Shown here: positions 1-42,975 of the stretch, one piece after another | Layout of the letters: each line of letters starts with the position of its first letter | Position numbering within the stretch: position 1 is the first letter of the stretch | Virus record (IMG/VR): IMGVR_UViG_2563366932_000014 | Direction: 5' to 3' (one strand) | DNA length: 42,975 nt | Source: a virus | Lineage: Duplodnaviria; Heunggongvirae; Uroviricota; Caudoviricetes | Made by a program: the position numbers and the translations under genes | The notes under the pieces: generated by a model | Databases searched by the model: none | What the model was told of the DNA's origin: nothing | Seen by the model: only the letters and a program-made list of their open reading frames with translations

Positions 1-198
1 ATGGCACTGGACAGTTATGCATCTCCGAATATTATTCCGGAGCTAAGACAACCGAATGCCGCAGCAGGTAAGATCACGCTAGGGGGGCTGGACAGAATGG
101 CTGTTACGCCCAGTGTGAAGAAAAGAAGGCTAAGTATGGTAGAATTTCCATACGCACAGACCTTGTTATCCGACTATACAGCCTGGAAGGCACTATGA
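1..198 (+). CDS. hypothetical small protein (65 aa), first gene of a two-gene operon
   Basis: ORF starts at window position 1; its stop overlaps the next start (ATGA at 195-198), suggesting translational coupling; no recognisable family. Confidence 0.3.
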   Translation: MALDSYASPNIIPELRQPNAAAGKITLGGLDRMAVTPSVKKRRLSMVEFPYAQTLLSDYTAWKAL

Positions 199-983
199 CA
201 AATCTACAACTGGAAGAAAGATTTAGGGCGCTTGAGAAAGATTACGATGCGCTCATTTCCACAAAATATACTGCGCAGAACGTTCTCACTCACACTATGG
301 AAACCTATGTTGATTCTGGTAAATATAAAAACTGGATCGCCAGAGTGAAAAAGTTAATAGAGGACAGCTACGGAAAAGAGTCTGATTATTACAATGACTT
401 CAATACTGTAAACAGCAGGTGGTCTTCTAATTACAATACACTGATCAAAAGTTATAAACCGTTGTTTGATGCGGCGAGAGATGATCTTGCGCACTCTGCT
501 GTCAGTACTAATACTCCTCAAGAAGGTTCGCCGCTGAGCCTCGTACTTAATATTCTTAACAGGTTTCCGACCTTTGTTCGCCAGTTAAAGAGGCGGTACA
601 ACGGCCGTGCGCCGCTTGAAGTTAATGATGAGTATGACGTACAGGATTTGATTTATGCACTGCTGACGCTTCATTTTAATGATATTAGGGCGGAAGAGTA
701 TACCCCCAGCTTTGCGGGCGCGGCCTCAAGACAGGACTTTCTTTTGAAAAAAGAGAAAATTGTGATAGAGGTGAAGAAAACCCGTGAATCTCTGGGAGCG
801 GGTAAAGTTGGTGGAGAGTTGCTTATTGATATGGCGCGCTACCGCGCTCACCAAGACTGCGATACGTTGATCTTGTTTGTATATGACCCGGATTGCTACA
901 TAAATAATCCTTTGGGCGTGAAAACCGATCTGGAATCTAAAGACGCGGAAGGAAAAGTGAAGGTTGTTATTGCGCAGTTCTGA
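195..983 (+). CDS. hypothetical protein (262 aa) with C-terminal PD-(D/E)xK-like nuclease motif
   Basis: long ORF coupled to upstream ORF; C-terminal residues ..EYDVQDLIYALL.. and ..EKIVIEVKK.. fit a D...(D/E)xK pattern by eye; fold not verified. Confidence 0.5.
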   Translation: MTNLQLEERFRALEKDYDALISTKYTAQNVLTHTMETYVDSGKYKNWIARVKKLIEDSYGKESDYYNDFNTVNSRWSSNYNTLIKSYKPLFDAARDDLAHSAVSTNTPQEGSPLSLVLNILNRFPTFVRQLKRRYNGRAPLEVNDEYDVQDLIYALLTLHFNDIRAEEYTPSFAGAASRQDFLLKKEKIVIEVKKTRESLGAGKVGGELLIDMARYRAHQDCDTLILFVYDPDCYINNPLGVKTDLESKDAEGKVKVVIAQF

Positions 984-1070: not shown

Positions 1071-1364
1071 TCATCTTTGCCAGGTCAAATCAAAATCTAC
1101 GTGAAAATCCGCAGGCTTAAGCTCGCAACTGCCACCACGCCCAATTAACGACGTTATGTTTACAACGTTTGAACCTGTTGAGATGGCAAGTTGAGTGTCA
1201 TCTGTAAACGTGATGATTAGCATTTCAGTCTGATGAACCTGTACTCCAGTTTTCTGAAAACCAATCTGGACAGATTTCACCGTTTTCCCAACCATTTCAC
1301 GGGCTTGATTGATAGAGTAATTAGCTTCAACTTGTAGGTCATTCCTGAACTTGGGTAGTGTCAT
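1071..1364 (-). CDS. hypothetical protein (97 aa)
   Basis: ORF with GAGGA-type RBS upstream of ATG; no recognisable family. Confidence 0.45.
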   Translation of the reverse strand: MTLPKFRNDLQVEANYSINQAREMVGKTVKSVQIGFQKTGVQVHQTEMLIITFTDDTQLAISTGSNVVNITSLIGRGGSCELKPADFHVDFDLTWQR

Positions 1365-1520: not shown

Positions 1521-1577
1521 CTCTCATCATGTGCGAAAATTGACCACAATATGAAATCCAGTTCCATTCCGAAATCA

Positions 1578-2301
<724 letters not shown>

Positions 2302-2715
2302 TAGACTGGCCCCCTGAATCTCCAGACAACCAATATCACTTATTTAAGTGATAGTCTTAATACTAGTTTTTAGACTAGTCATTGGAGAGCAGATGATTGA
2401 TGTCTTAGGACCGGAGAAACGCAGACGGCGTACCACACAGGAAAAGATCGCAATTGTTCAGCAGAGCTTTGAACCAGGGATGACGGTCTCCCTCGTTGCC
2501 CGGCAACACGGTGTGGCAGCCAGCCAGTTATTTCTCTGGCGTAAGCAATACCAGGAAGGAAGTCTTACTGCTGTCGCCGCCGGAGAACAGGTTGTTCCTG
2601 CCTCTGAACTTGCTGCCGCCATGAAGCAGATTAAAGAACTCCAGCGCCTGCTCGGCAAGAAAACGATGGAAAATGAACTCCTCAAAGAAGCCGTTGAATA
2701 TGGACGGGCAAAAAA

Positions 2716-3735
<1,020 letters not shown>

Positions 3736-3833
3736 TCAATTGACAACTTATAATCCCTACTAGTTAGCATTATGATTTCCAGAGTGAGGAATATAAAAAT
3801 CTCTGTTTCTGGCACATAACAGCCCTTAAGATC

Positions 3834-3891
3834 GTAGCTCGCCATCATGGGGTGTCGGGGGGCGGAGGTTCAAATCCTCTCGTGCCGACCA
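3834..3891 (+). other. 3' fragment of a tRNA-Pro(GGG)-like gene (anticodon loop through CCA), probable attachment-site remnant
   Basis: ..tcatggggtgtcgggg..ggaggttcaaatcctctcgtgccgacca: T-arm GGAGG-TTCAAAT-CCTCT, acceptor 3' strand and CCA present; no 5' strand pairs with the acceptor, so not an intact tRNA. Confidence 0.6.
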
Positions 3892-3906
3892 AAAATCCCT
3901 TAAGAA

Positions 3907-3931
3907 CCAGCCTATTATGGCTGGTTTTTTT
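3907..3931 (+). terminator. rho-independent terminator just after the tRNA fragment
   Basis: stem ccagcc/ggctgg, loop tattat, then 7 T. Confidence 0.7.
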
Positions 3932-4099
3932 ATGATTGTTTTTTATGCGGAGAAATACCGGGGAATAATTGGGGTAAAACACCTTTAGGCTATTCACTTA
4001 GCCTACCACCATCAAAATCTTTCCGAATGTATCCATCTCTTTTTTCTTATGCAGCTAAAACGAAGTCTTGATACTGTTTATTTACACAGATAAGAATAA

Positions 4100-4119
4100 T
4101 ACTGTCTACAAACGCAGTA
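4100..4119. promoter_or_regulatory. LexA (SOS) box-like site upstream of the dinI-like remnant
   Basis: tactgtctacaaacgcagta matches the TACTGT-N8-ACAGTA pattern with one mismatch, about 14 bp before the ATG. Confidence 0.5.
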
Positions 4120-4132
4120 CAAAAGAAGTGTT

Positions 4133-4380
4133 ATGCGTATTGAGATCTCCATAGCCAAAGACAAAATGACCAAATGCCAAACGGCGCTGTGGACGCGTTA
4201 AAGGAAGAATTAACCCAACACATTGGCAAGCGTTATGACGATGTGGAGATGATCGTAAAAGCCACCAGCAACGATAGTTTTTCAGTTAGACATACTGCAG
4301 ATAAAGATTGAGCTAAAACTTTCGTTCAGGAAACTCTGAATGATACCTGAGAGTCTACTGAAGAGTTGTTTGTTCACTAG
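4133..4380 (+). pseudogene. dinI-like gene remnant (frameshift plus two in-frame TGA stops)
   Basis: frame A gives [11 protein letters not shown]..; a second frame continues ..[37 protein letters not shown].. then stop; AKTFVQETLNDT stop ESTEELFVH stop; the pieces together resemble DinI (recalled, not searched). Confidence 0.5.
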
Positions 4381-4675
4381 TTAGCACGTAGGAAATCATT
4401 CAATACTCGCACTATCGGAAGTTCACCAGCCAGTCGTAGCACGTCCTTGCAAACGACGTGCCTACGGTTTCAATCACCTCTCACCATCAATTCTATCAAT
4501 AATAATTAAACAGCGCCTAGACAAAATAAATAACAACAAGTCAACAACCTCGACAGGATGCCGATGGGATGATGAAGAGATAAGAAAGAATAACCAGTAA
4601 AGCCCTAAAACGTCAGCGTTCAGACGCGTTTTTTACTTAATCGGTAACAAATACGTTGTATCATAGCAAAATAAA

Positions 4676-6625
4676 ATGATTGTTCTAAATCAGATTAACT
4701 CCTCACTTTTGTACAATGTCGCTTACAGGTATACCATGAAATCCGAGACGCTAACTGTCCAACAACTTTTTCAAGACCGCCGACAATACTGTGTTCCATT
4801 CTATCAACGTGCCTATGTATGGACTCAGCAAGACCAGTGGTCAGCTCTACTGGAGGATATCCTAGAGAAAGTACAATCCCGGCTCTCGGGTACAAAACCA
4901 ACTCCCCATTTCCTTGGTGCGGTTGTACTGGAACCTCAATCAAAAAAAGGATTATTAGGTGTAGATTCCATACATATTATTGATGGTCAGCAACGATTGA
5001 CCACTCTTCAATATGTTCTGGCATCCATCCGATTAGCATTACGTGCTACGGATCTTTCCAGCTTAGAGGCTCTCATTTCGCCTTGCCTGAAAAACTCAAA
5101 CGAAGACACAATGCGAAATAAAGAAGTAGAACGCTTCAAACTGTGGCCAACTTTTCGGGATCAAACTCATTTTATTCAAAGTTTTAATGTTGAAAATATT
5201 GACGATCTCCGGGACGTATTCTCTGATAGTTTCACGCAGCATGGTACGTTGCGTAAGCATTTTAATCACCCGCCATCACTAGAAGCATTATGTTTTTTTA
5301 CTGAAGCCTTTATAAAATGGATTAAAATAGAAAACCACTCACCACAAGAAAATGCTGTAGCTCTAATTGAGGCTGTCTTAACAGATCTGAAACTGGTAAG
5401 CATATTTCTCGAAGCTGAAGATGATGCCCAAATAATTTTTGAAACATTAAATGGGCGAGGGGCGGAACTTCATGCTACGGATCTTATTCGCAACTATATC
5501 TTTATGTGCGCTGAGCATGAAAATATTAATGCTATTGAATTATATGAAAATGAGTGGAAGAGCTTTGAAGATAAATACTGGTCGGAAAAACAACGCCGTG
5601 GACGTATTAATAAACCACGCATGGAGTGGCTAGTACATGCGACATTGCAATCAGAAAGGCAACGTGAAATTGATCTGTCTCGCCTTTACAATGAGTATCG
5701 TGATTATGTAAGTAAGGACTTGTCTTCACAACGAGCAGATCTGCAAGTAAAGCGCCTCAAACAATATGCATCACAATATAAAGAATTGGTTGATGGTTTT
5801 GGCACAACCCCCATCTCACACTTTGGATATCGCATCGCAGACTATGATGTGACGACACTTTATCCGCTTGCTTTGTTCATTTCGATAGCTAACATCGCTG
5901 ATGATGAGAAAGCAGCCATGTATAATGATCTTGTCTCCTACGTAGTACGAAGAGCCGTATGTGGCCTGACGCCAAAGAATTACAACAATGTATTTATGAA
6001 TGTATTGCGGCACTTGGCTAAAACGGAAATTTCCAGTGTTGAGTTACGTAATATCCTCAATAACTTAAATGGCGAAGCCTCACGTTGGCCTGGTGACTCA
6101 GAATTTCTCAACGCTTGCATCAATGCTCCACTTTATCCTGGCAGGCTCGACGCACCGAAAATGCGCTCAATGTTAACGGAACTTGAAAGAGAACTTTGTC
6201 GCCAAGTAAAGACAGAAAAGCCTGATGTTCCAAATCTTTCTAATCTCGATATCGATCATCTTATGCCTCAAAGTTGGTATTCCTGTTGGCCTCTCGAAAA
6301 TGGTCGTATGGTGACAAATTCAGATGCTACGGTATTGAACCAAATTGTTCTGTCTGGAACCGATCTTACCCCTGAACAGCTACTGGTAAGGAAACGGCAA
6401 CAAGCGATATCTACTTTGGGAAATCTAACTTTGCTTAACCTTAGCGTAAACCGTTCTGTTCAGAATGCTGTATTTCTGAAAAAACGTGATGCTCTCATCG
6501 TCCACACCAATCTACGACTGAACATTCCACTTATAGTTAAGGATAAATGGGATGAGGATGAAATCCTGGAGCGGGGTAAAAAGTTGGGGGAAATTGCATT
6601 GAAAGTATGGCCAAAACACGATTAA
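4676..6625 (+). CDS. GmrSD-family (DUF262 N-terminal, DUF1524/HNH-like C-terminal) putative type IV modification-dependent restriction endonuclease
   Basis: 649-aa ORF; N-terminal ..FYQRAYVW.. and DGQQR motif; C-terminal ..DIDHLMPQS.. and ..NLSVNRSVQN.. His-Me finger-like; AT-rich by inspection; start may be the ATG at 4736. Confidence 0.65.
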   Translation: MIVLNQINSSLLYNVAYRYTMKSETLTVQQLFQDRRQYCVPFYQRAYVWTQQDQWSALLEDILEKVQSRLSGTKPTPHFLGAVVLEPQSKKGLLGVDSIHIIDGQQRLTTLQYVLASIRLALRATDLSSLEALISPCLKNSNEDTMRNKEVERFKLWPTFRDQTHFIQSFNVENIDDLRDVFSDSFTQHGTLRKHFNHPPSLEALCFFTEAFIKWIKIENHSPQENAVALIEAVLTDLKLVSIFLEAEDDAQIIFETLNGRGAELHATDLIRNYIFMCAEHENINAIELYENEWKSFEDKYWSEKQRRGRINKPRMEWLVHATLQSERQREIDLSRLYNEYRDYVSKDLSSQRADLQVKRLKQYASQYKELVDGFGTTPISHFGYRIADYDVTTLYPLALFISIANIADDEKAAMYNDLVSYVVRRAVCGLTPKNYNNVFMNVLRHLAKTEISSVELRNILNNLNGEASRWPGDSEFLNACINAPLYPGRLDAPKMRSMLTELERELCRQVKTEKPDVPNLSNLDIDHLMPQSWYSCWPLENGRMVTNSDATVLNQIVLSGTDLTPEQLLVRKRQQAISTLGNLTLLNLSVNRSVQNAVFLKKRDALIVHTNLRLNIPLIVKDKWDEDEILERGKKLGEIALKVWPKHD

Positions 6626-6720: not shown

Positions 6721-6849
6721 CTAGGTCTCGGACTTTGTACCGCTTATCTTGTCTTCAAAAATCAGCTCGCATCCTGCACAGTTCAGCGCATTACGTTGTA
6801 GATCTGTGTTCTGGTCATTTGTTGACACACGTACATAGCCAATAAGCAT
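6721..6849 (-). pseudogene. truncated 5' remnant of a Pin/Gin/Cin-type serine DNA invertase gene
   Basis: minus strand encodes MLIGYVRVSTNDQNTDLQRNALNCAGCELIFEDKISGT.., then the match is lost and a stop follows; the remaining ~150 codons of an invertase are absent. Confidence 0.7.
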
Positions 6850-6903
6850 GGTAGATCTCCCTGACAAAAGCAGGAATGATGCCATTTGCTCGTTATTTCT
6901 GCA

Positions 6904-6929
6904 TTTTCATAAACGTTGGTTTGGGAGAA
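6904..6929. repeat. 26-bp hix/gix-like inversion crossover site, promoter-distal
   Basis: ttttcataaacg tt ggtttgggagaa; right half-site is the exact reverse complement of the left half-site of the site at 8831-8856; central dinucleotide TT versus AA. Confidence 0.65.
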
Positions 6930-7370
6930 GCGGCAAAACGGAATGTGGGCAACGGGGAAAACCAAATCCCTGATATGTCTTTCTGGACGGTTACTGGTGG
7001 CAATGGAAATTTTGTGATTCGTCAACCTGACGGGCTAATCATTCAGATGGTTACTGTAAGTATAAGCGGCCCAGTGGCGATGAATGGAATGACTGATAAT
7101 GCTTATGCCATCACAGGTTCTAATAAGTCTTATATTGCCACAGCCACATTGCCCTTTGTATTTCCTAATAAGGTGCTGGGCGTTATCCCTCTGGTATCAA
7201 CAACAGCTTATGGTGGTGTATCCAGTAATATTACAGGTTCATACGCGACGGCGGTTTGTTCTTTTGCCGCTGTCAGGGGGAATAATACGATTGTGTTCAA
7301 AGTCGACAAACCACTGAATGCAGCCTTTCCTTCAGATACCAGCGTCTCAGCGTTAATCATTGGACGGTAA
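6918..7370 (+). CDS. promoterless alternative tail-fibre C-terminal cassette (Sv'-like)
   Basis: frame is open from the crossover site; in-silico inversion would fuse it in frame to the constant N-terminal part (..ALENLGLGE) of the tail-fibre gene. Confidence 0.6.
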   Translation, partial: GLGEAAKRNVGNGENQIPDMSFWTVTGGNGNFVIRQPDGLIIQMVTVSISGPVAMNGMTDNAYAITGSNKSYIATATLPFVFPNKVLGVIPLVSTTAYGGVSSNITGSYATAVCSFAAVRGNNTIVFKVDKPLNAAFPSDTSVSALIIGR

Positions 7371-7372
7371 TA

Positions 7373-7816
7373 ATGAACTCAGTATTCTTTTCACCCGGAA
7401 GTAAAAGTTTTTATCTGCAAGAATTGTTTCCAGAATATGAGGATGCGGGAACGCTTCCTGATGATGTTATTGAAATTACCAGAGAAACATATGAGCAATT
7501 TCTTGGTCTGCATCCAGAAGGGAAAGAAATTGGCGCTGACAGTTCAGGACGGCCAGTATGGATTAATTCCCCACCCCCTTCAAAAGAGGATGAGGTGTTG
7601 ACGGCTGAAATGAAAAAAATATCTTTGGTTTCAGAAGTCAATACCTACATCAATACCCATCAGTGGCCTGGCAAAGCTGCTATTGGTCGTCTGAAAGGCG
7701 AGGAACTGGCGCAATATAATTCGTGGCTGGATTATCTGGACGCACTGGAACTGGTCGATACTTCCTGTGCGCCAGATATTGAATGGCCTACGCCTCCGGC
7801 AGTTCAGGCCAGATGA
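7373..7816 (+). CDS. alternative tail-fibre assembly protein (U'-like)
   Basis: 147-aa ORF right after the Sv' cassette; C-terminal ..WPTPPAVQAR resembles the tail-fibre assembly protein family; its 3' end overlaps the convergent assembly gene. Confidence 0.65.
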   Translation: MNSVFFSPGSKSFYLQELFPEYEDAGTLPDDVIEITRETYEQFLGLHPEGKEIGADSSGRPVWINSPPPSKEDEVLTAEMKKISLVSEVNTYINTHQWPGKAAIGRLKGEELAQYNSWLDYLDALELVDTSCAPDIEWPTPPAVQAR

Positions 7817-8390
7817 CATCCGGCGCTGTGCTGGTATTTGTTGCCGTCACCGCGTCAATGTAATCCAGCACAGCGTTAAGCCGGGTTGTTTCTGCCTGCA
7901 TCAGCTTCCGTCCGGCCTGTAATTTCAGCTGAATCAGACCGATGGAAGCCATTGCAGCATCAATCAGTGACTGACGCTGTGCTTCTGCCGCGTCTACTGC
8001 GGCGCTATGCTGTGCCTCAGTATCGGTCACCCATTTCTCACCATCCCATTTATCGTATGGCGTTAATGGGGCAATAGTGGTTGTATTTTCGGGGTAATCA
8101 CCCGGTGCTGTGATTTGTTTTGATTCTCCCGTTTCGGTGTTATAGACGATTTCACCGCGATGGTCTGGCACATATTCCCATGAATTTAAATTCACAGAAC
8201 GACAGATAGCATAACCCGCCTTATGTATACCTGGTGCATCCAGACAGGAATATGCCGGGATACCAACACCAACGGCAAGATATTCACTTGAAGTGGAAAT
8301 ATATTCCCGAGTTTCACCATCATAGTTATAAACGGTAATATCCCCTGCCTTTGTAGCAACAAGTCCACTATTTAATATTGCTTTATCCAT
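7788..8390 (-). CDS. tail-fibre assembly protein (Tfa/U-like)
   Basis: 200-aa ORF directly downstream of the tail-fibre gene. Confidence 0.7.
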   Translation of the reverse strand: MDKAILNSGLVATKAGDITVYNYDGETREYISTSSEYLAVGVGIPAYSCLDAPGIHKAGYAICRSVNLNSWEYVPDHRGEIVYNTETGESKQITAPGDYPENTTTIAPLTPYDKWDGEKWVTDTEAQHSAAVDAAEAQRQSLIDAAMASIGLIQLKLQAGRKLMQAETTRLNAVLDYIDAVTATNTSTAPDVIWPELPEA

Positions 8391-19904: not shown

Positions 19905-20224
19905 TGCGGAAAGTACCTGTACGGGCCGACAAGCCAGCCAAAACTCTGCGGCATGTCGAGTTTCTCCACTTCCGTAACCGACGAGCGGTTTTCGTAAAAA
20001 TGGCTGATAAGCATCAGCATCCCCAGACGAATATCATCCGGCAGGTGCAGCCCGTCCGGATCGCTGTCCGGAATGGTTTCATCCGGTGCATAGAGCTTCC
20101 GGTTCAGATACGTTTCCGTCCGCTTTTGTGCCGCACAGGCCAGCAGTTGCAGATGGCGGTCATCAGCATCGAAATCCTCATCCAGCCGGAGTTGGGCTTT
20201 AATCTCTTCCATTGTCAGAAGCAT
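19901..20224 (-). CDS. head-tail connector protein (gp6-like)
   Basis: 107-aa ORF directly after the capsid region. Confidence 0.55.
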   Translation of the reverse strand: MLLTMEEIKAQLRLDEDFDADDRHLQLLACAAQKRTETYLNRKLYAPDETIPDSDPDGLHLPDDIRLGMLMLISHFYENRSSVTEVEKLDMPQSFGWLVGPYRYFPQ

Positions 20225-30101: not shown

Positions 30102-31068
30102 GATCGATAAAACGAAATATCAGCTCCAGCTGGGAGCCATACATCTCTTCAAATGCCACGGTATCCGCATGCAGCTCGTCGTGATGCTTTCTGCACAAAG
30201 GCAACACAAAAAGGTCATGCGCTTTTGTACCCATTCCACCCTGTCCGTGGCCTATCAGGTGGTGGGGATCATCAGCGGGCTTTCCACAACATGCACACGA
30301 CTGTGTCTTAACCCAGCGCGTGTACTTTTCATTAACCCAGCGGCGACGTTTTGGGCGTAACATAAAAGACTCCGGCGACTCCGGATCCACTTTCAGCGCC
30401 AGCACCTTTTTCGCCTTATCCTGGATGATGCTGGTGGCAGGAACCGAAGGCACAAGGTCACTTTCCCGGGTGACAGACGGCACAACAGGCTTCGGTAATC
30501 TCAGTGCCTTACGGGCTGCACTTTCCGGTAAGGCATCCGCCAGATCATTACGAACCAGCCACCAGCACAGTTCCGGCATTGTCACAACGTGACTGTCATC
30601 AAAACCGAGATCCCGACGCACAACAGACAACACCCAGCGGGCACAGTTATCCGTTGCCATTGATTCCAGCCGTTCCGTGAACTGATCGCGAAGCAGGTTA
30701 TCGCAGTGCCAGCACAGACGGATTGCGCCCGGCGCGTGTCGCATTGTGGTCATGTTCTCGCTGTGCCATCCGGAATGAGGCCACTGACAGCCCTTTTCAC
30801 GAAGTAACCAGCTTTCAAGACATTCCACACCCCCCGCACGACGAATAACTGCCTCATTGCGGAACACGGCCCGAATGGCAGGATCATCCGCCAGCGGTTG
30901 TGATGCCGCCGGAACGGCACCACTGGCAAAAGATGAATAACGTTCCGGCTCAGGCTCCAGCAGGACACGCCCCTGCATAAACAGGGGCATCAGCTCTGAA
31001 CCGGGCCTGAACAATACGATCCCCATACGCGGGGCAATTTCAGGGGTCAGTAGTGCTCTCACGGTCAC
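30073..31068 (-). CDS. DUF968-like prophage protein with C-terminal HNH-like Cys/His motif
   Basis: 331-aa ORF; ..CACCGKPADDPHHLIGHG..CRKHHDELH.. Confidence 0.55.
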   Translation of the reverse strand: MTVRALLTPEIAPRMGIVLFRPGSELMPLFMQGRVLLEPEPERYSSFASGAVPAASQPLADDPAIRAVFRNEAVIRRAGGVECLESWLLREKGCQWPHSGWHSENMTTMRHAPGAIRLCWHCDNLLRDQFTERLESMATDNCARWVLSVVRRDLGFDDSHVVTMPELCWWLVRNDLADALPESAARKALRLPKPVVPSVTRESDLVPSVPATSIIQDKAKKVLALKVDPESPESFMLRPKRRRWVNEKYTRWVKTQSCACCGKPADDPHHLIGHGQGGMGTKAHDLFVLPLCRKHHDELHADTVAFEEMYGSQLELIFRFIDRALAIGVLV

Positions 31069-39148: not shown

Positions 39149-39673
39149 ATGTCATTTATTAAAACTTTTTCCGGGAAGCATTTTTATTATGACAGGATAA
39201 ATAAAGACGACATCGTTATTAACGATATCGCGGTTTCTCTTTCAAATATCTGTCGCTTTGCAGGACATCTTTCACATTTCTACAGCGTCGCCCAACATGC
39301 GGTGCTTTGCAGCCAACTGGTACCGCAGGAATTTGCTTTTGAAGCGTTAATGCATGATGCAACAGAAGCGTATTGCCAGGACATCCCGGCGCCACTGAAA
39401 CGCCTTCTTCCTGACTATAAACGGATGGAAGAAAAAATAGACGCCGTAATCCGTGAGAAATACGGGTTACCCCCGGTTATGAGTACGCCCGTGAAATATG
39501 CCGATCTCATCATGCTGGCAACCGAACGCCGCGATCTCGGGCTTGATGATGGCTCTTTCTGGCCCGTACTGGAAGGTATCCCGGCAACAGAGATGTTCAA
39601 AGTTATTCCACTGTCGCCAGGCCATACCTATGGGATGTTTATGGAACGCTTTAAAGAGTTAACTGAGTCGTAA
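39149..39673 (+). CDS. HD-domain phosphohydrolase
   Basis: H..H and ..LMHDATEAY.. HD motif; GGAG RBS before the ATG at 39149; listed ORF starts at 39122. Confidence 0.6.
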   Translation: MSFIKTFSGKHFYYDRINKDDIVINDIAVSLSNICRFAGHLSHFYSVAQHAVLCSQLVPQEFAFEALMHDATEAYCQDIPAPLKRLLPDYKRMEEKIDAVIREKYGLPPVMSTPVKYADLIMLATERRDLGLDDGSFWPVLEGIPATEMFKVIPLSPGHTYGMFMERFKELTES

Positions 39674-39781
39674 AAATCAGCACGTACGAATTCAAACTCT
39701 GCCATAAAAGAACATATAAGTAATTTATTAACATATAGATATAGGTTATATTACAAATTGAAAAATTATTGGAGAGCAACA

Positions 39782-40648
39782 ATGAATCAAAATCCATTCT
39801 CATTCTATGACTTTCTTGGATATTTAATACCAGGTGGTTTTTTTATCCTATTAATGTATTTCTGTGGTTTGACATTCGATCTAGATATTGTTATTGACTT
39901 AAGTGAATTGCTCAGAGGTCAAAGTCAAATCTTTGGCATTTTGAACTACGCTTCAATAGTTATTATATCTTATATAGCTGGACATTTTATTTCTATCACG
40001 TCAGCATTTTTTATCGAAAAATACATGAATAAAGAATTAGGATATCCTTCCAAATATCTATTTAAAAAATTGATAGATACCTCAGAAAGCATTTGTAGCC
40101 CATCATGCGATGAGAGAAGCGCTGATAAAAAAACAAAAATAAAGAATCGCATAATCAAATGCGTATTATGTCCAATAATACTATGGGATTTTATAACACA
40201 AAAACTATGTTATTCTCAATCTCTACCATTTCATTTAGCTAATACAACATGGTTAATGATCAAAGAAGGTTATGAGAAAAAGTTCATAACAAATCGCCAA
40301 TTATTACAAGATAAAAACGGACTTGATGATGATCTCTTCAGATTGGCATATCATTATGTTTATGAGTTTTCAAAACAACATCAAACAAAAATTCAAAACT
40401 ATGTTGCATTATATGGTTTTTGCAGAAACATATGTTTAATCTTTATAATTTCATTTTGGGTATCAGTTCCAACCTTTATTTATCGATTATGTACTCATAG
40501 TGATTATCTTTATAGTTTACTTTCAATAATGCTTAGCTTTTTCTTCGTCTATGTTTTCTATGTTGGTTTTGTTAAATTTTATAGAAGATATACTTTAGAA
40601 GTATTAATGGCATTTGCTGTACTTCAAAGTAACGACACTATTCGTTAA
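39782..40648 (+). CDS. very AT-rich four-TM membrane protein of unknown function
   Basis: two N-terminal and two C-terminal hydrophobic helices around a ~140-aa soluble region; GGAGAG RBS before the ATG at 39782; listed ORF starts at 39758. Confidence 0.55.
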   Translation: MNQNPFSFYDFLGYLIPGGFFILLMYFCGLTFDLDIVIDLSELLRGQSQIFGILNYASIVIISYIAGHFISITSAFFIEKYMNKELGYPSKYLFKKLIDTSESICSPSCDERSADKKTKIKNRIIKCVLCPIILWDFITQKLCYSQSLPFHLANTTWLMIKEGYEKKFITNRQLLQDKNGLDDDLFRLAYHYVYEFSKQHQTKIQNYVALYGFCRNICLIFIISFWVSVPTFIYRLCTHSDYLYSLLSIMLSFFFVYVFYVGFVKFYRRYTLEVLMAFAVLQSNDTIR

Positions 40649-40650
40649 TA

Positions 40651-40896
40651 ATGTTGCTCCCGTGTGCAGACGGGATAATGGAGAAACGTATGCTGAACCT
40701 CGATTGTGTTCCTATCTCAACTTATTGCAAAGAAACTGGCGAAACTCCTGAAGCAATAAACAAACGTGTACAGCGCGGTGTTTGGCGTGAAGGTGTTCAG
40801 GTTTTAAAGGTTGAAGGCGTTAAGGAGAGGTGGATTGATCTTAGTGAGGTTGCAAAATGGGCCAGACAAAACTGCTCAAACTACCGCGCGGCGTAA
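40651..40896 (+). CDS. excisionase-like protein
   Basis: small basic protein immediately upstream of and overlapping int; true start may be an internal Met. Confidence 0.55.
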   Translation: MLLPCADGIMEKRMLNLDCVPISTYCKETGETPEAINKRVQRGVWREGVQVLKVEGVKERWIDLSEVAKWARQNCSNYRAA

Positions 40897-42029
40897 CAAT
40901 CAGGAAACACCACCAGGGAGAAACGATCAATATAACTTTCACCTACAAAGGAGTTAGATGTCGTGAGCCGCTTTCCAATCTGGAAGTAACACCAAAGAAC
41001 ATTAAATACGCCGAGCGTACACTCGGCGAAATCCATAATAAGATCGAAAGGGGAACATTCATTTATGCAGAATATTTTCCCCGTTCTGCTCGTTTGAAAA
41101 TTTTTGGTAATGCTGCTGCAAGCAAAACGGTAAAGATGTACCTGGACGAATATCTTGAAATCTGCGAAACAAGAAAACTTTCACCCTCTACGATTGGTGG
41201 CTATAAAAAATGCCGTAGTGCGTTAGCCTCACTTCACATTTGCCCTGCAAGTGAATTAACACCAGCAACCCTGAAAGCGTGGATTCAAAGCCAGAAAACA
41301 ACCTTAAAAACCATTCGCAACCAGTTATCTTTCCTACGGTCAGCACTTGATGAAGCCGTGACCGATGGGGTACTTCAAATTAACCCCGTATCGTTAGTAA
41401 CAGCTTCGCGCTACCAAAGTGATAAGTCAGAAGCAGAAAGCAGCTATGTGGTTGATCCGCTATCACCAGCAGAAGTTGATGCATTACTAGCAGCAGCCGG
41501 AAACAAACAATGGGAAAATCTGTTCCGGTTCGCCATACATACAGGCCTGCGTAGTTCTGAATTATGTGCCCTACGATGGCATGATATCGACTTTGTTGGA
41601 AAAACAGCCCATGTTCAGAGCGCAAGTGTTGTCGGAGTTATCAAAGGAACAAAGACAAAAGCCGGTACCCGTAAAGTTGAACTGACTGAAGAAGCAATGT
41701 TGGCGTTGATAAACCAGAAGCCATTTACATTCATGAAGGATGCTACTGTCTTTGAAGATCCAAAGACCAATAAACCCTGGGCAAGTGCTGATGCAATTAG
41801 GAAAAAAGCATGGGTGCCAACATTGCGAAAAGCAGGTATTCGTTACAGAAACCCATATCAAACCAGGCATACATTCGCCACCAGCCATATCAGCCGGGGA
41901 GCAAACCTGTTTTGGCTTGCGGCTCAAATGGGCCATAAAGGGCCTGAAATGTTATTCAGGCACTATGGACAATACTTGAAAGAGTATGATGGGAGGGCAA
42001 GTATCAAGGATAAAAAGGCTTTATTTTAA
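40857..42029 (+). CDS. tyrosine integrase with N-terminal arm-binding domain
   Basis: N-terminal ..LPRGVTIRKHHQGETINITFTYKGVRCRE..; C-terminal R, H-x-x-R and Tyr (..HTFAT..FRHYGQYL..) motifs. Confidence 0.85.
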   Translation: MGQTKLLKLPRGVTIRKHHQGETINITFTYKGVRCREPLSNLEVTPKNIKYAERTLGEIHNKIERGTFIYAEYFPRSARLKIFGNAAASKTVKMYLDEYLEICETRKLSPSTIGGYKKCRSALASLHICPASELTPATLKAWIQSQKTTLKTIRNQLSFLRSALDEAVTDGVLQINPVSLVTASRYQSDKSEAESSYVVDPLSPAEVDALLAAAGNKQWENLFRFAIHTGLRSSELCALRWHDIDFVGKTAHVQSASVVGVIKGTKTKAGTRKVELTEEAMLALINQKPFTFMKDATVFEDPKTNKPWASADAIRKKAWVPTLRKAGIRYRNPYQTRHTFATSHISRGANLFWLAAQMGHKGPEMLFRHYGQYLKEYDGRASIKDKKALF

Positions 42030-42638
42030 GTCATTATGCCAATCGTCTACTGTTTGAAACCAAATTTTTAACCTTTGCATAAAGGTACGATCCTTTTTGG
42101 GAGGGTGGTACCTTTGAAAAGAAGTATGTAACGCTTCGATAACTCCCATACAAGCATCAATTACTTCTTGTGCTTTAACCGGGCGATCGGCATCTGAAAG
42201 CTTGTGAGCGACCTCACAATCCAGAGTTGCTTTCTCTAGTACAGATGAGAACACCTCGTCAGGTATATACAGTCCTCTGCTTTCCAAAATGCAAATCAGT
42301 TTGGAAACTTGTTGAGCTTTAGCCAAGATAGTTAACAAGTATGAAACAGAAGCCTTTGTTCTATCCTTTTGCAACCTTAACAATCGATGCTTTGATGCTC
42401 TAATTTTAGGTTGAGTTGTCTGACTGAGCCAATAGTTAGAAGAAATATCAGAAATTTCAATAACTAACTTTGAAATAGCATCAATAATTGATTTCGATTC
42501 AGAACGTGTCGCCAGTTTTACAGAATTATTGTACGCAACTCGCCATCCAATGAAAACTAAGCAGACGCTAACTACTGTGATACACCACGAATACTGTCCT
42601 ATTTGTGCTACTAATGACATTGGTTCCGTACTGATCAA
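42021..42638 (-). CDS. membrane-anchored hypothetical protein (205 aa)
   Basis: one N-terminal TM helix; AT-rich; convergent with and overlapping the int stop. Confidence 0.45.
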   Translation of the reverse strand: MISTEPMSLVAQIGQYSWCITVVSVCLVFIGWRVAYNNSVKLATRSESKSIIDAISKLVIEISDISSNYWLSQTTQPKIRASKHRLLRLQKDRTKASVSYLLTILAKAQQVSKLICILESRGLYIPDEVFSSVLEKATLDCEVAHKLSDADRPVKAQEVIDACMGVIEALHTSFQRYHPPKKDRTFMQRLKIWFQTVDDWHNDLK

Positions 42639-42648
42639 CTATCGCCTC

Positions 42649-42975
42649 TTATACTCTTTCTGGTTGTGCTAAATCAATAAATTTATCAATCTGTTCTTTG
42701 TAGAACGGAACATCACTTTTTATAATCAAACGTGCTTTAACGTTGGCTTTAGGTATCCCTTCCTTACGGATGAGACCTCCAAACGCCTCTTCTAAGAAAG
42801 AGGAACCAACACCCAGTGCTATACCGCGAAAATCAACCACAATCTCCTGTTCAGTACCCTTCAGCGCAGGCACCAAAAACTCTCTACGAAATCTTTCCGC
42901 ACTGTGTGGGCTATCCGTTGTGTAACGTCCGAAAGGTGTTCTGGAGAACTCCTTCGCTATGACGATATTTCTCAT
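42649..42975 (-). CDS. hypothetical small protein (108 aa), possibly STAS-like
   Basis: ATG is exactly at the window edge; 10-nt gap to the downstream gene; fold suggestion is tentative. Confidence 0.4.
   Translation of the reverse strand: MRNIVIAKEFSRTPFGRYTTDSPHSAERFRREFLVPALKGTEQEIVVDFRGIALGVGSSFLEEAFGGLIRKEGIPKANVKARLIIKSDVPFYKEQIDKFIDLAQPERV

Follow-up and report, generated by a model that had tools for sequence, protein, structure and literature searches.

A probable fossil proL-type attachment site inside a lambdoid prophage integrated at ssrA of Escherichia coli

Gene content of the window and its genomic setting

The DNA analysed here, 42,975 nucleotides long, comes from a Caudoviricetes record (IMGVR_UViG_2563366932_000014) and is called the window throughout. 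It is nearly the same, base for base, as positions 2,851,475-2,894,449 of E. coli CEA212U (NZ_CP166707.1), bases 3000-5000 being 100% identical. The first difference between the two is a C/T SNP at 30415, and the two coordinate mappings are offset by 1 nt in length, so that the window stems from a very close relative of this strain or from a different assembly.

The left end of the window opens with a gene for a DpnII/MboI-like protein with a restriction endonuclease domain (195-983, plus strand) and a 97-aa ORF (1071-1364, minus strand). Both are cargo lying between the left ssrA repeat (attL) of the prophage and a tRNA-like fragment derived from proL, the subject of this report. Next comes a LEM-3-like GIY-YIG nuclease gene, also cargo, which an IS2 copy has cut in two: its first ~17 codons lie at 3632-3684 and its remainder at 1575-2301 (minus strand in both cases). 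The IS2 copy itself (2302-3631, plus strand) is a simple insertion, as UTI89 bases 20000-20005 are present on both of its sides as a target-site duplication. The region upstream of the GIY-YIG gene (3685-3833, no strand assigned) forms the left flank of the proL fragment, which is followed by a terminator and a DinI-like pseudogene.

Further rightward lie a GmrSD-type (DUF262) restriction-like cargo gene (4676-6625, plus strand; RefSeq start 4736), located between the DinI-like pseudogene and an invertase remnant, and tail-fibre genes. From there as far as yfdR run genes for tail, head, lysis, a Q-like antiterminator, replication and a repressor. The right end (39669-42975) carries a 296-aa ORF, a xis-like ORF (40651-40896), a tyrosine integrase gene of ssrA type (40857-42029) and, on the minus strand, a 205-aa ORF and a DUF4325 STAS-like ORF.

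Two minor features of this gene content deserve mention. The invertase remnant, of Pin/Gin type (6727-6849, minus strand), sits beside opposed cassettes of tail-fibre and tail-fibre-assembly genes (6876-8390), and the host-range switch is probably frozen. At the other end, a weak HATPase-like ORF (L004 18456-19367) adjoins the STAS-like gene (42649-42975) beside the integrase. Judged by the encoded domains, cargo at both ends of the prophage looks defence-related, comprising the restriction endonuclease-domain protein, the LEM-3-like GIY-YIG nuclease, the GmrSD-type DUF262 protein and the STAS-like and HATPase-like products.

In CEA212U, smpB, ssrA, a P2-like prophage and a 46-nt ssrA repeat are found to the left of the window; to its right there are one more ORF, a partial ssrA repeat and then glaH. 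UTI89 shows this order too, but lacks both the P2-like phage and IS2. The P2-like prophage is complete (ogr through int; CEA212U 2,817,246-2,851,090) and stands in tandem at ssrA. Its right end is the perfect 46-nt ssrA repeat, ending ~430 bp left of window position 1. The true tandem pair of prophages consists of this P2-like phage, wholly outside the window, and the prophage of the window. A sequence-only reading of the same DNA had seen in the window a juxtaposition of at least two mobile elements; instead, it holds one mosaic prophage and one IS2.

The proL-derived fragment and its right flank

Positions 3834-3891 of the window read, on the plus strand, GTAGCTCGCCATCATGGGGTGTCGGGGGGCGGAGGTTCAAATCCTCTCGTGCCGACCA. 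Aligned with nucleotides 20-77 of K-12 proL, the gene of the tRNA-Pro with anticodon GGG, this stretch has 54 matches out of 58. The part from 3846 to 3891 is a proL-type att core, running from the anticodon loop (from CATGGGG) through the variable loop, T arm and 3' acceptor strand to CCA. It is identical to the last 46 nucleotides of proL at 45 positions, with a T to G change at 3862 as the sole difference, and its anticodon GGG lies at 3849-3851. The preceding 12 nucleotides (3834-3845, plus strand) are a degenerate tRNA-like stretch corresponding to proL nucleotides 20-31, that is, to the 3' strand of the D stem and the 5' strand of the anticodon stem (9/12 matches). The first 19 nucleotides of proL are missing. 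A 28-nt string from the T arm and acceptor strand occurs once in the window, with none expected from 100 shuffles.

The fragment lacks the full cloverleaf and the pair of acceptor strands that make a functional tRNA-Pro. ARAGORN predicted no tRNA gene over the window, the Rfam search of the window gave nothing at gathering score, and a tRNA model run over 3700-4000 found no match even at E<=10. In these respects the sequence-only reading was accurate: it had described a plus-strand fragment running from an anticodon loop with GGG through the T arm to CCA, followed by a terminator, and had taken it for something other than a gene because of its missing 5' acceptor strand; no intact tRNA is predicted here.

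An exact 9-nt direct repeat, CCCTTAAGA, flanks the tRNA-like piece (3823-3831 and 3897-3905) and extends to 12/14 matches over 14 nt. It is weakly above chance, 20 of 1000 shuffles having scored equally well. The left flank was also considered as a possible degraded tandem repeat of this piece, an idea that was rejected: TRF found none, and just a 9-mer was shared in the alignment.

Immediately after CCA comes the trailer AAAATCCC (3892-3899, plus strand), common to native proL and the phage arm, at which the block of identity between attB and the phage site ends in the alignment. It is followed at 3902-3931 (plus strand) by a hairpin of 11 pairs, five of them G-C, with a loop of 6 (3902-3929) and a T-run with its tail to ~3931. 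The hairpin also appears in the predicted fold, and hairpin and T-run together identify a putative Rho-independent terminator. This terminator, at which the restored proL gene of true proL lysogens ends, mimics the native one of proL and differs from it in sequence, K-12 proL being followed by the trailer and terminator AAAATCCCAAGAAAAAACCAACCCTTACGGTTGG TTTTTTT... 

Comparison with K-12, with E. coli ACN001 and with the virion genomes of phages Eeyore and Flotzy indicates that the terminator is borne by the phage. ACN001 has the remnant of a related prophage at proL, and the trailer and terminator following its intact proL (attL, beside yejM) are identical to those of the window in a four-way alignment. 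The displaced copy at the integrase side of that prophage bears the native K-12-type trailer, just before a yejO-like gene. What follows intact proL in ACN001, namely a DinI-like pseudogene, a GmrSD gene and tail-fibre genes, matches the window with 98-99% identity from 3834 onward; for the segment 3932-4350 (plus strand), which includes the DinI-like pseudogene (4133-4350), identity amounts to 98.9%. Among the matches listed, the block from 3834 on adjoins an annotated intact tRNA-Pro in many E. coli genomes.

The virion genomes give the undivided order: xis-like gene, int, P arm with core and terminator mimic, UmuD-like gene, DinI gene, an invertase gene in Eeyore only, and tail fibres. The integrase they encode shares 77% identity with the one linked to proL in ACN001. 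In the light of these comparisons, the core, the terminator and the DinI side of the window are recognizable as the phage-borne P' half of a proL-type att site. The other half is another matter. A P arm of this family beside its cognate integrase, as expected of a proL-type attP, is lacking: no integrase adjoins the fragment, and its left flank is unlike the P arms of Eeyore, Flotzy and ACN001. With a phage P' arm as its right flank, the fragment is part of the large prophage on that side, and the claim of the sequence-only reading that it points away from this prophage was wrong.

Integration at ssrA and replacement of the integration module

Both proL and ssrA are recognised prophage sites in E. 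coli (PMC8767318). The integrase of the window consists of Arm-DNA-binding and phage-integrase domains. It is 86% identical to the integrase of phage LLS (PQ299149) and has no significant similarity to the proL-type integrase. The annotated attP of LLS lies two genes downstream of int and is homologous to the same ~190 nt that are directly repeated around the prophage of the window.

These repeats, 188 nt with 90% identity, consist of the ssrA 3' end with ~150 nt downstream of it. They lie at ssrA (L005 17285-17472) and between the last phage-side ORF and glaH (L004 19516-19697). An empty site, in which ssrA is contiguous with the glaH-side DNA, is found in 709 E. coli genomes. Since the repeats bracket it and empty sites occur, everything between the repeats is inserted DNA. 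The prophage thus shows what is expected of one integrated at ssrA: border repeats, an empty site in relatives and an integrase of a clade that presumably targets ssrA. The LLS identity, the repeats and the empty sites together suggest that the integrase is specific for ssrA, the LLS attP being identified as a tmRNA pseudogene by its depositors' annotation.

The DNA separating the GIY-YIG cluster from the proL fragment has no ssrA core, which makes this cluster cargo of the one ssrA-bounded prophage. The cluster contains no integrase, and its IS2 is a simple insertion. The nuclease/IS2 cluster had earlier been taken for a separate element; it proved to lie within the insertion bounded by the ssrA repeats.

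The right-hand ssrA repeat, ~1.07 kb past the right end of the window, is without 5 nt (CTCCA) of the ssrA 3' end (L004 19516-19560). This loss and the ~90% identity to the left copy may affect the efficiency of excision.

Homology between the window and its proL-integrated relative in ACN001 begins at 3834, going rightward, and stops where yfdR ends, at 39668. The remaining DNA, which starts at 39669 and continues by way of the prophage ends to 3833, is unrelated to the integration module of ACN001 and comprises the ssrA-type xis and int, the halves of the ssrA attP and cargo genes. We infer that the two ends of this homology, 3834 and 39668, are the breakpoints of a module swap. The fragment had also been said to mark an element boundary. 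It does mark a boundary of ancestry, homology to the proL relative starting at 3834, but not the end of a separate element.

The fragment is thus very probably a non-functional fossil of a proL-type att site, lying inside a lambdoid prophage whose integration module has been changed. In relatives still using proL, attP consists of a P arm beside the integrase, a core equal to the 46 nt of the proL 3' end and a P' arm, which has the substitute terminator at its start and continues with dinI, an invertase gene and tail-fibre genes. Upon integration, the phage core and terminator replace the 3' end of the host proL, which stays a working gene, and the displaced host 3' end finishes at the integrase end of the prophage. 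The phage of the window would have kept the backbone rightward from the core, with the terminator, DinI-like pseudogene and tail, head and replication genes, as far as yfdR. The stretch from yfdR to the core, through the circular junction, would have been replaced by an ssrA-specific xis/int/attP together with cargo (restriction endonuclease-like, GIY-YIG and STAS-like genes).

The prophage is accordingly inserted at ssrA, with ~190-nt ssrA repeats just outside both ends of the window and a proL relic ~4.2 kb inside its left end (~2.9 kb without IS2). This relic has neither a partner nor a cognate integrase and is decaying by point mutation. The anatomy, homologies, repeats, empty sites and decay are seen directly in the compared DNA; from them we infer the order of events, a replacement of the module by phage-phage recombination, and the present lack of function.

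In this way, an exchange of a proL-type for an ssrA-type integration module is documented with breakpoints mapped to within a few bases, and the fossil site adjoins a variable cargo slot with nuclease and restriction-like genes. The relic is a product of ordinary phage mosaicism, and the current understanding of phage biology is unchanged by these findings.

The known systems agree with parts of this picture. Like the attP of Eeyore (PP925821) and Flotzy (PP925827) and the attL of ACN001, the window has the core, a substitute terminator after CCA and the order DinI, invertase, tail fibre. Unlike these proL phages, it has no cognate integrase and no Eeyore-type P arm at the relic, carries a single core substitution plus three more in the 12 nt that precede the core, and lies at the ssrA locus with no partner. 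LLS shares with the window, besides the integrase and the attP region, the overlap of xis and int; it differs in having no proL relic in its 6.2-kb int/attP region (to the DinI-like gene) and other cargo genes on the attP side. We found no description of this proL relic in the literature.

Relatives of the relic and alternative readings

The same relic is present in ssrA-locus prophages of E. coli HS and WP2-S18, ~1 kb from ssrA, but the genes on its left are unrelated. Between the ssrA attL and the relic there are two small ORFs in HS (L020 6154-7000), one 306-aa ORF in WP2-S18-ESBL-07 (L021 6080-7000) and three genes in the UTI89 type. The interval is a variable cargo slot bounded by the conserved relic.

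All three ssrA-locus copies have in common a G to A change just left of the anticodon loop. Because this change is seen neither in proL nor in the virion attP, the three relics share an ancestor. In HS and WP2 the acceptor strand has lost 1-2 nt, HS also has a damaged terminator, and the change private to the window copy is the T to G substitution. These changes in the ssrA-locus relics follow the pattern of neutral decay.

A core with the G variant is present in 2 of ~185,000 species-representative genomes, those of Citrobacter murliniae (CP163158; copy at L018 1522-1596) and Enterobacter sp. (CP193791; copy at L019 1910-1949). We considered whether the G variant might be a genuine tRNA of another species and rejected this, neither of the two matching copies being an intact tRNA. 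On the side homologous to the left flank of the relic, the Citrobacter copy is accompanied by NUDIX and SRAP ORFs, tonB, an IS-type transposase fragment and yciA-yciB-yciC. Its other side is phage DNA with UmuD-like and DinI-like genes.

Another copy with the same G variant is found in Gifsy-2 (NC_010393 44256-44334; L013 1507-1585). It consists of a truncated proL-like T arm, acceptor strand and terminator mimic, lying ~1.5 kb from the end of the record and upstream of sseI and tail-fibre genes. It resembles the window in the T arm, the acceptor strand, the terminator mimic, the G in the variable loop and the position inside a prophage on the tail-fibre/cargo side. It differs in that the homology starts only in the variable loop, and in its neighbours (sseI) and host genus. 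Gifsy-2 presumably sits between pncB and pepN and not at proL. Taken together, these copies indicate that the block of core, terminator and DinI occurs also at loci other than proL, in other phage-related contexts.

How the relic arose is less certain than what it is. It may descend from an attP whose homology to the tRNA was long, or else from an attL that aberrant excision captured from the chromosome. The second of these, by which the relic would derive from an attL made of the 5' part of proL, core and P' arm and not from an unrecombined attP, is a possible though not the likelier origin. In its favour is the resemblance of the 12 nt left of the core to proL, 9 of 12 in the window and almost perfect over nucleotides 19-31 in the Citrobacter copy, which the P arms of Eeyore and Flotzy match worse. 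Farther left, however, there is no similarity to the 5' half of proL or to yejM in any copy, 3685-3833 of the window resembling neither the virion P arms nor the chromosomal DNA 5' of proL. Moreover, the Citrobacter copy shares with the window ~40 nt left of the core, of which ~25 nt (3810-3833) are not tRNA. This non-tRNA flank, TGGCACATA..., common to E. coli and Citrobacter, looks like a phage P arm of a third type. Long tRNA homology is also known from some attP sites.

Against its being a dead fossil, the window copy has an intact overlap region and terminator and a near-perfect core, and it may have some residual activity as a secondary att site or as a terminator. We considered whether it is a working site: either a secondary, attB-like target for the proL-type integrases of co-infecting phages, or a terminator insulating cargo genes. 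The overlap region (the anticodon loop) and the right arm are unaltered, the left stem arm is one base off attB (CCATC vs CCGTC), and the hairpin of the window terminator is preserved. In addition, the DNA left of the relic differs among the three ssrA-locus lineages, which makes the spot a cargo hot-spot, and the presence of the relic in all three could be explained by selection instead of linkage. Yet no second phage inserted at the relic was seen among the matches listed. The CCAT arm is common to the three lineages, placing the breakpoints left of the overlap region and not within it, where site-specific exchange would need them. The deletions in HS and WP2 and the damaged HS terminator also speak against a retained function. 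GIY-YIG, which alone is annotated directly left of the relic, is on the minus strand, although the ORF at 195-983 and IS2, farther left, are on the plus strand.

On balance, we regard a working site as improbable. The fuller proposal, in which proL-type integrases could use the relic as a secondary att or recombination site and the interval between it and the ssrA attL would be a slot for integrase-assisted exchange of cargo, is a shade more doubtful still. If true, the secondary-att reading would explain the unrelated, partly defence-like genes left of the conserved relic in three lineages.

Duplicated 3' ends of tRNA genes, the direct repeats attL and attR, border phages and genomic islands integrated at tRNAs. 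The fragment resembles such classical repeats in covering the stretch of a tRNA gene that starts in the anticodon loop and finishes with CCA. It differs from them in that it is no border, has no partner and lies ~4.2 kb inside an element that has ssrA repeats at its borders. The sequence-only reading had taken it for an att-type direct repeat, namely the 3' copy (attR) displaced when an element on the left, corresponding to the nuclease/IS2 cluster, integrated at proL, with the prophage on the right being a separate neighbour. Its premise, that the displaced copy is distal with the element 5' of it, is correct in ACN001, where the copy is at the integrase end, but does not apply to the fragment of the window. 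It was also right that the fragment derives from the att site of a tRNA-integrating phage and is not a gene; a repeat it is not, there being no second copy of the proL core in the window or within 17 kb to its left or right (short-word BLAST).

Apart from the near-identity to the 3' part of the target tRNA (45/46), the fragment has none of the properties of a current attL or attR. No partner tRNA gene is found within island length: the next landmark to the left is not an intact proL but ssrA with the P2-like prophage. The genuine proL of CEA212U (2,337,064-2,337,140), the only one in this closest genome, is intact and unoccupied 518 kb left of the fragment, in the K-12-like order yejM-proL-yejO remnant-narP. 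Neither flank is native DNA of a tRNA locus, the right one being the P' arm and the left one GIY-YIG cargo, and the sole integrase is the LLS-like one of ssrA type. The junction which an attR predicts, joining the left flank, the core and the native K-12 trailer, does not occur in any of 5,426 complete E. coli genomes. The sequence-only reading had itself named, as something that would refute it, the lack of a matching tRNA gene within a plausible island length to the left, and this lack is what is found. The evidence refutes an element integrated at proL to the left and makes it very improbable. Least probable of all, and likewise refuted, is that the fragment is the chromosomal proL cut by an IS2-mediated inversion or deletion joining the proL and ssrA loci, since, although IS2 lies 200 bp to its left and ACN001 likewise has an IS2 near its proL-linked prophage, the IS2 has its target-site duplication, the junction is the same in UTI89, which lacks this IS2, the usual proL locus is undisturbed, neighbouring genes included, and the trailer of the fragment is of phage type.

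The fossil att site is useful as a caution for the calling of prophage boundaries. Fragments of tRNA genes are widely used to mark the borders of prophages and islands, and in this case the practice leads to a wrong border and also to a wrong direction.

Some further observations concern the surroundings of the relic in other genomes. Insertion sequences have hit the region independently, at L009 4766-5994 and 6884-8097 in MS8345 and at L002 8741-10071 in ACN001: in MS8345 an IS2 lies just upstream of GIY-YIG, in the window it splits this gene, and in ACN001 it stands between the DinI-like and GmrSD genes. In MS8345, another element of the IS3 family took the place of most of the prophage. The exact left junction of the relic was found in viral contigs just in copies of the UTI89-type prophage, and a diverged GIY-YIG flank in SE11 sits in the accessory region of a different prophage. 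Finally, at the integrase-side junction of ACN001, RefSeq annotates a 78-nt tRNA-Pro (2,330,087-2,330,164) where ARAGORN calls none. By its composition of P arm, core and native trailer, this segment is an attR, and the tRNA call is probably false.
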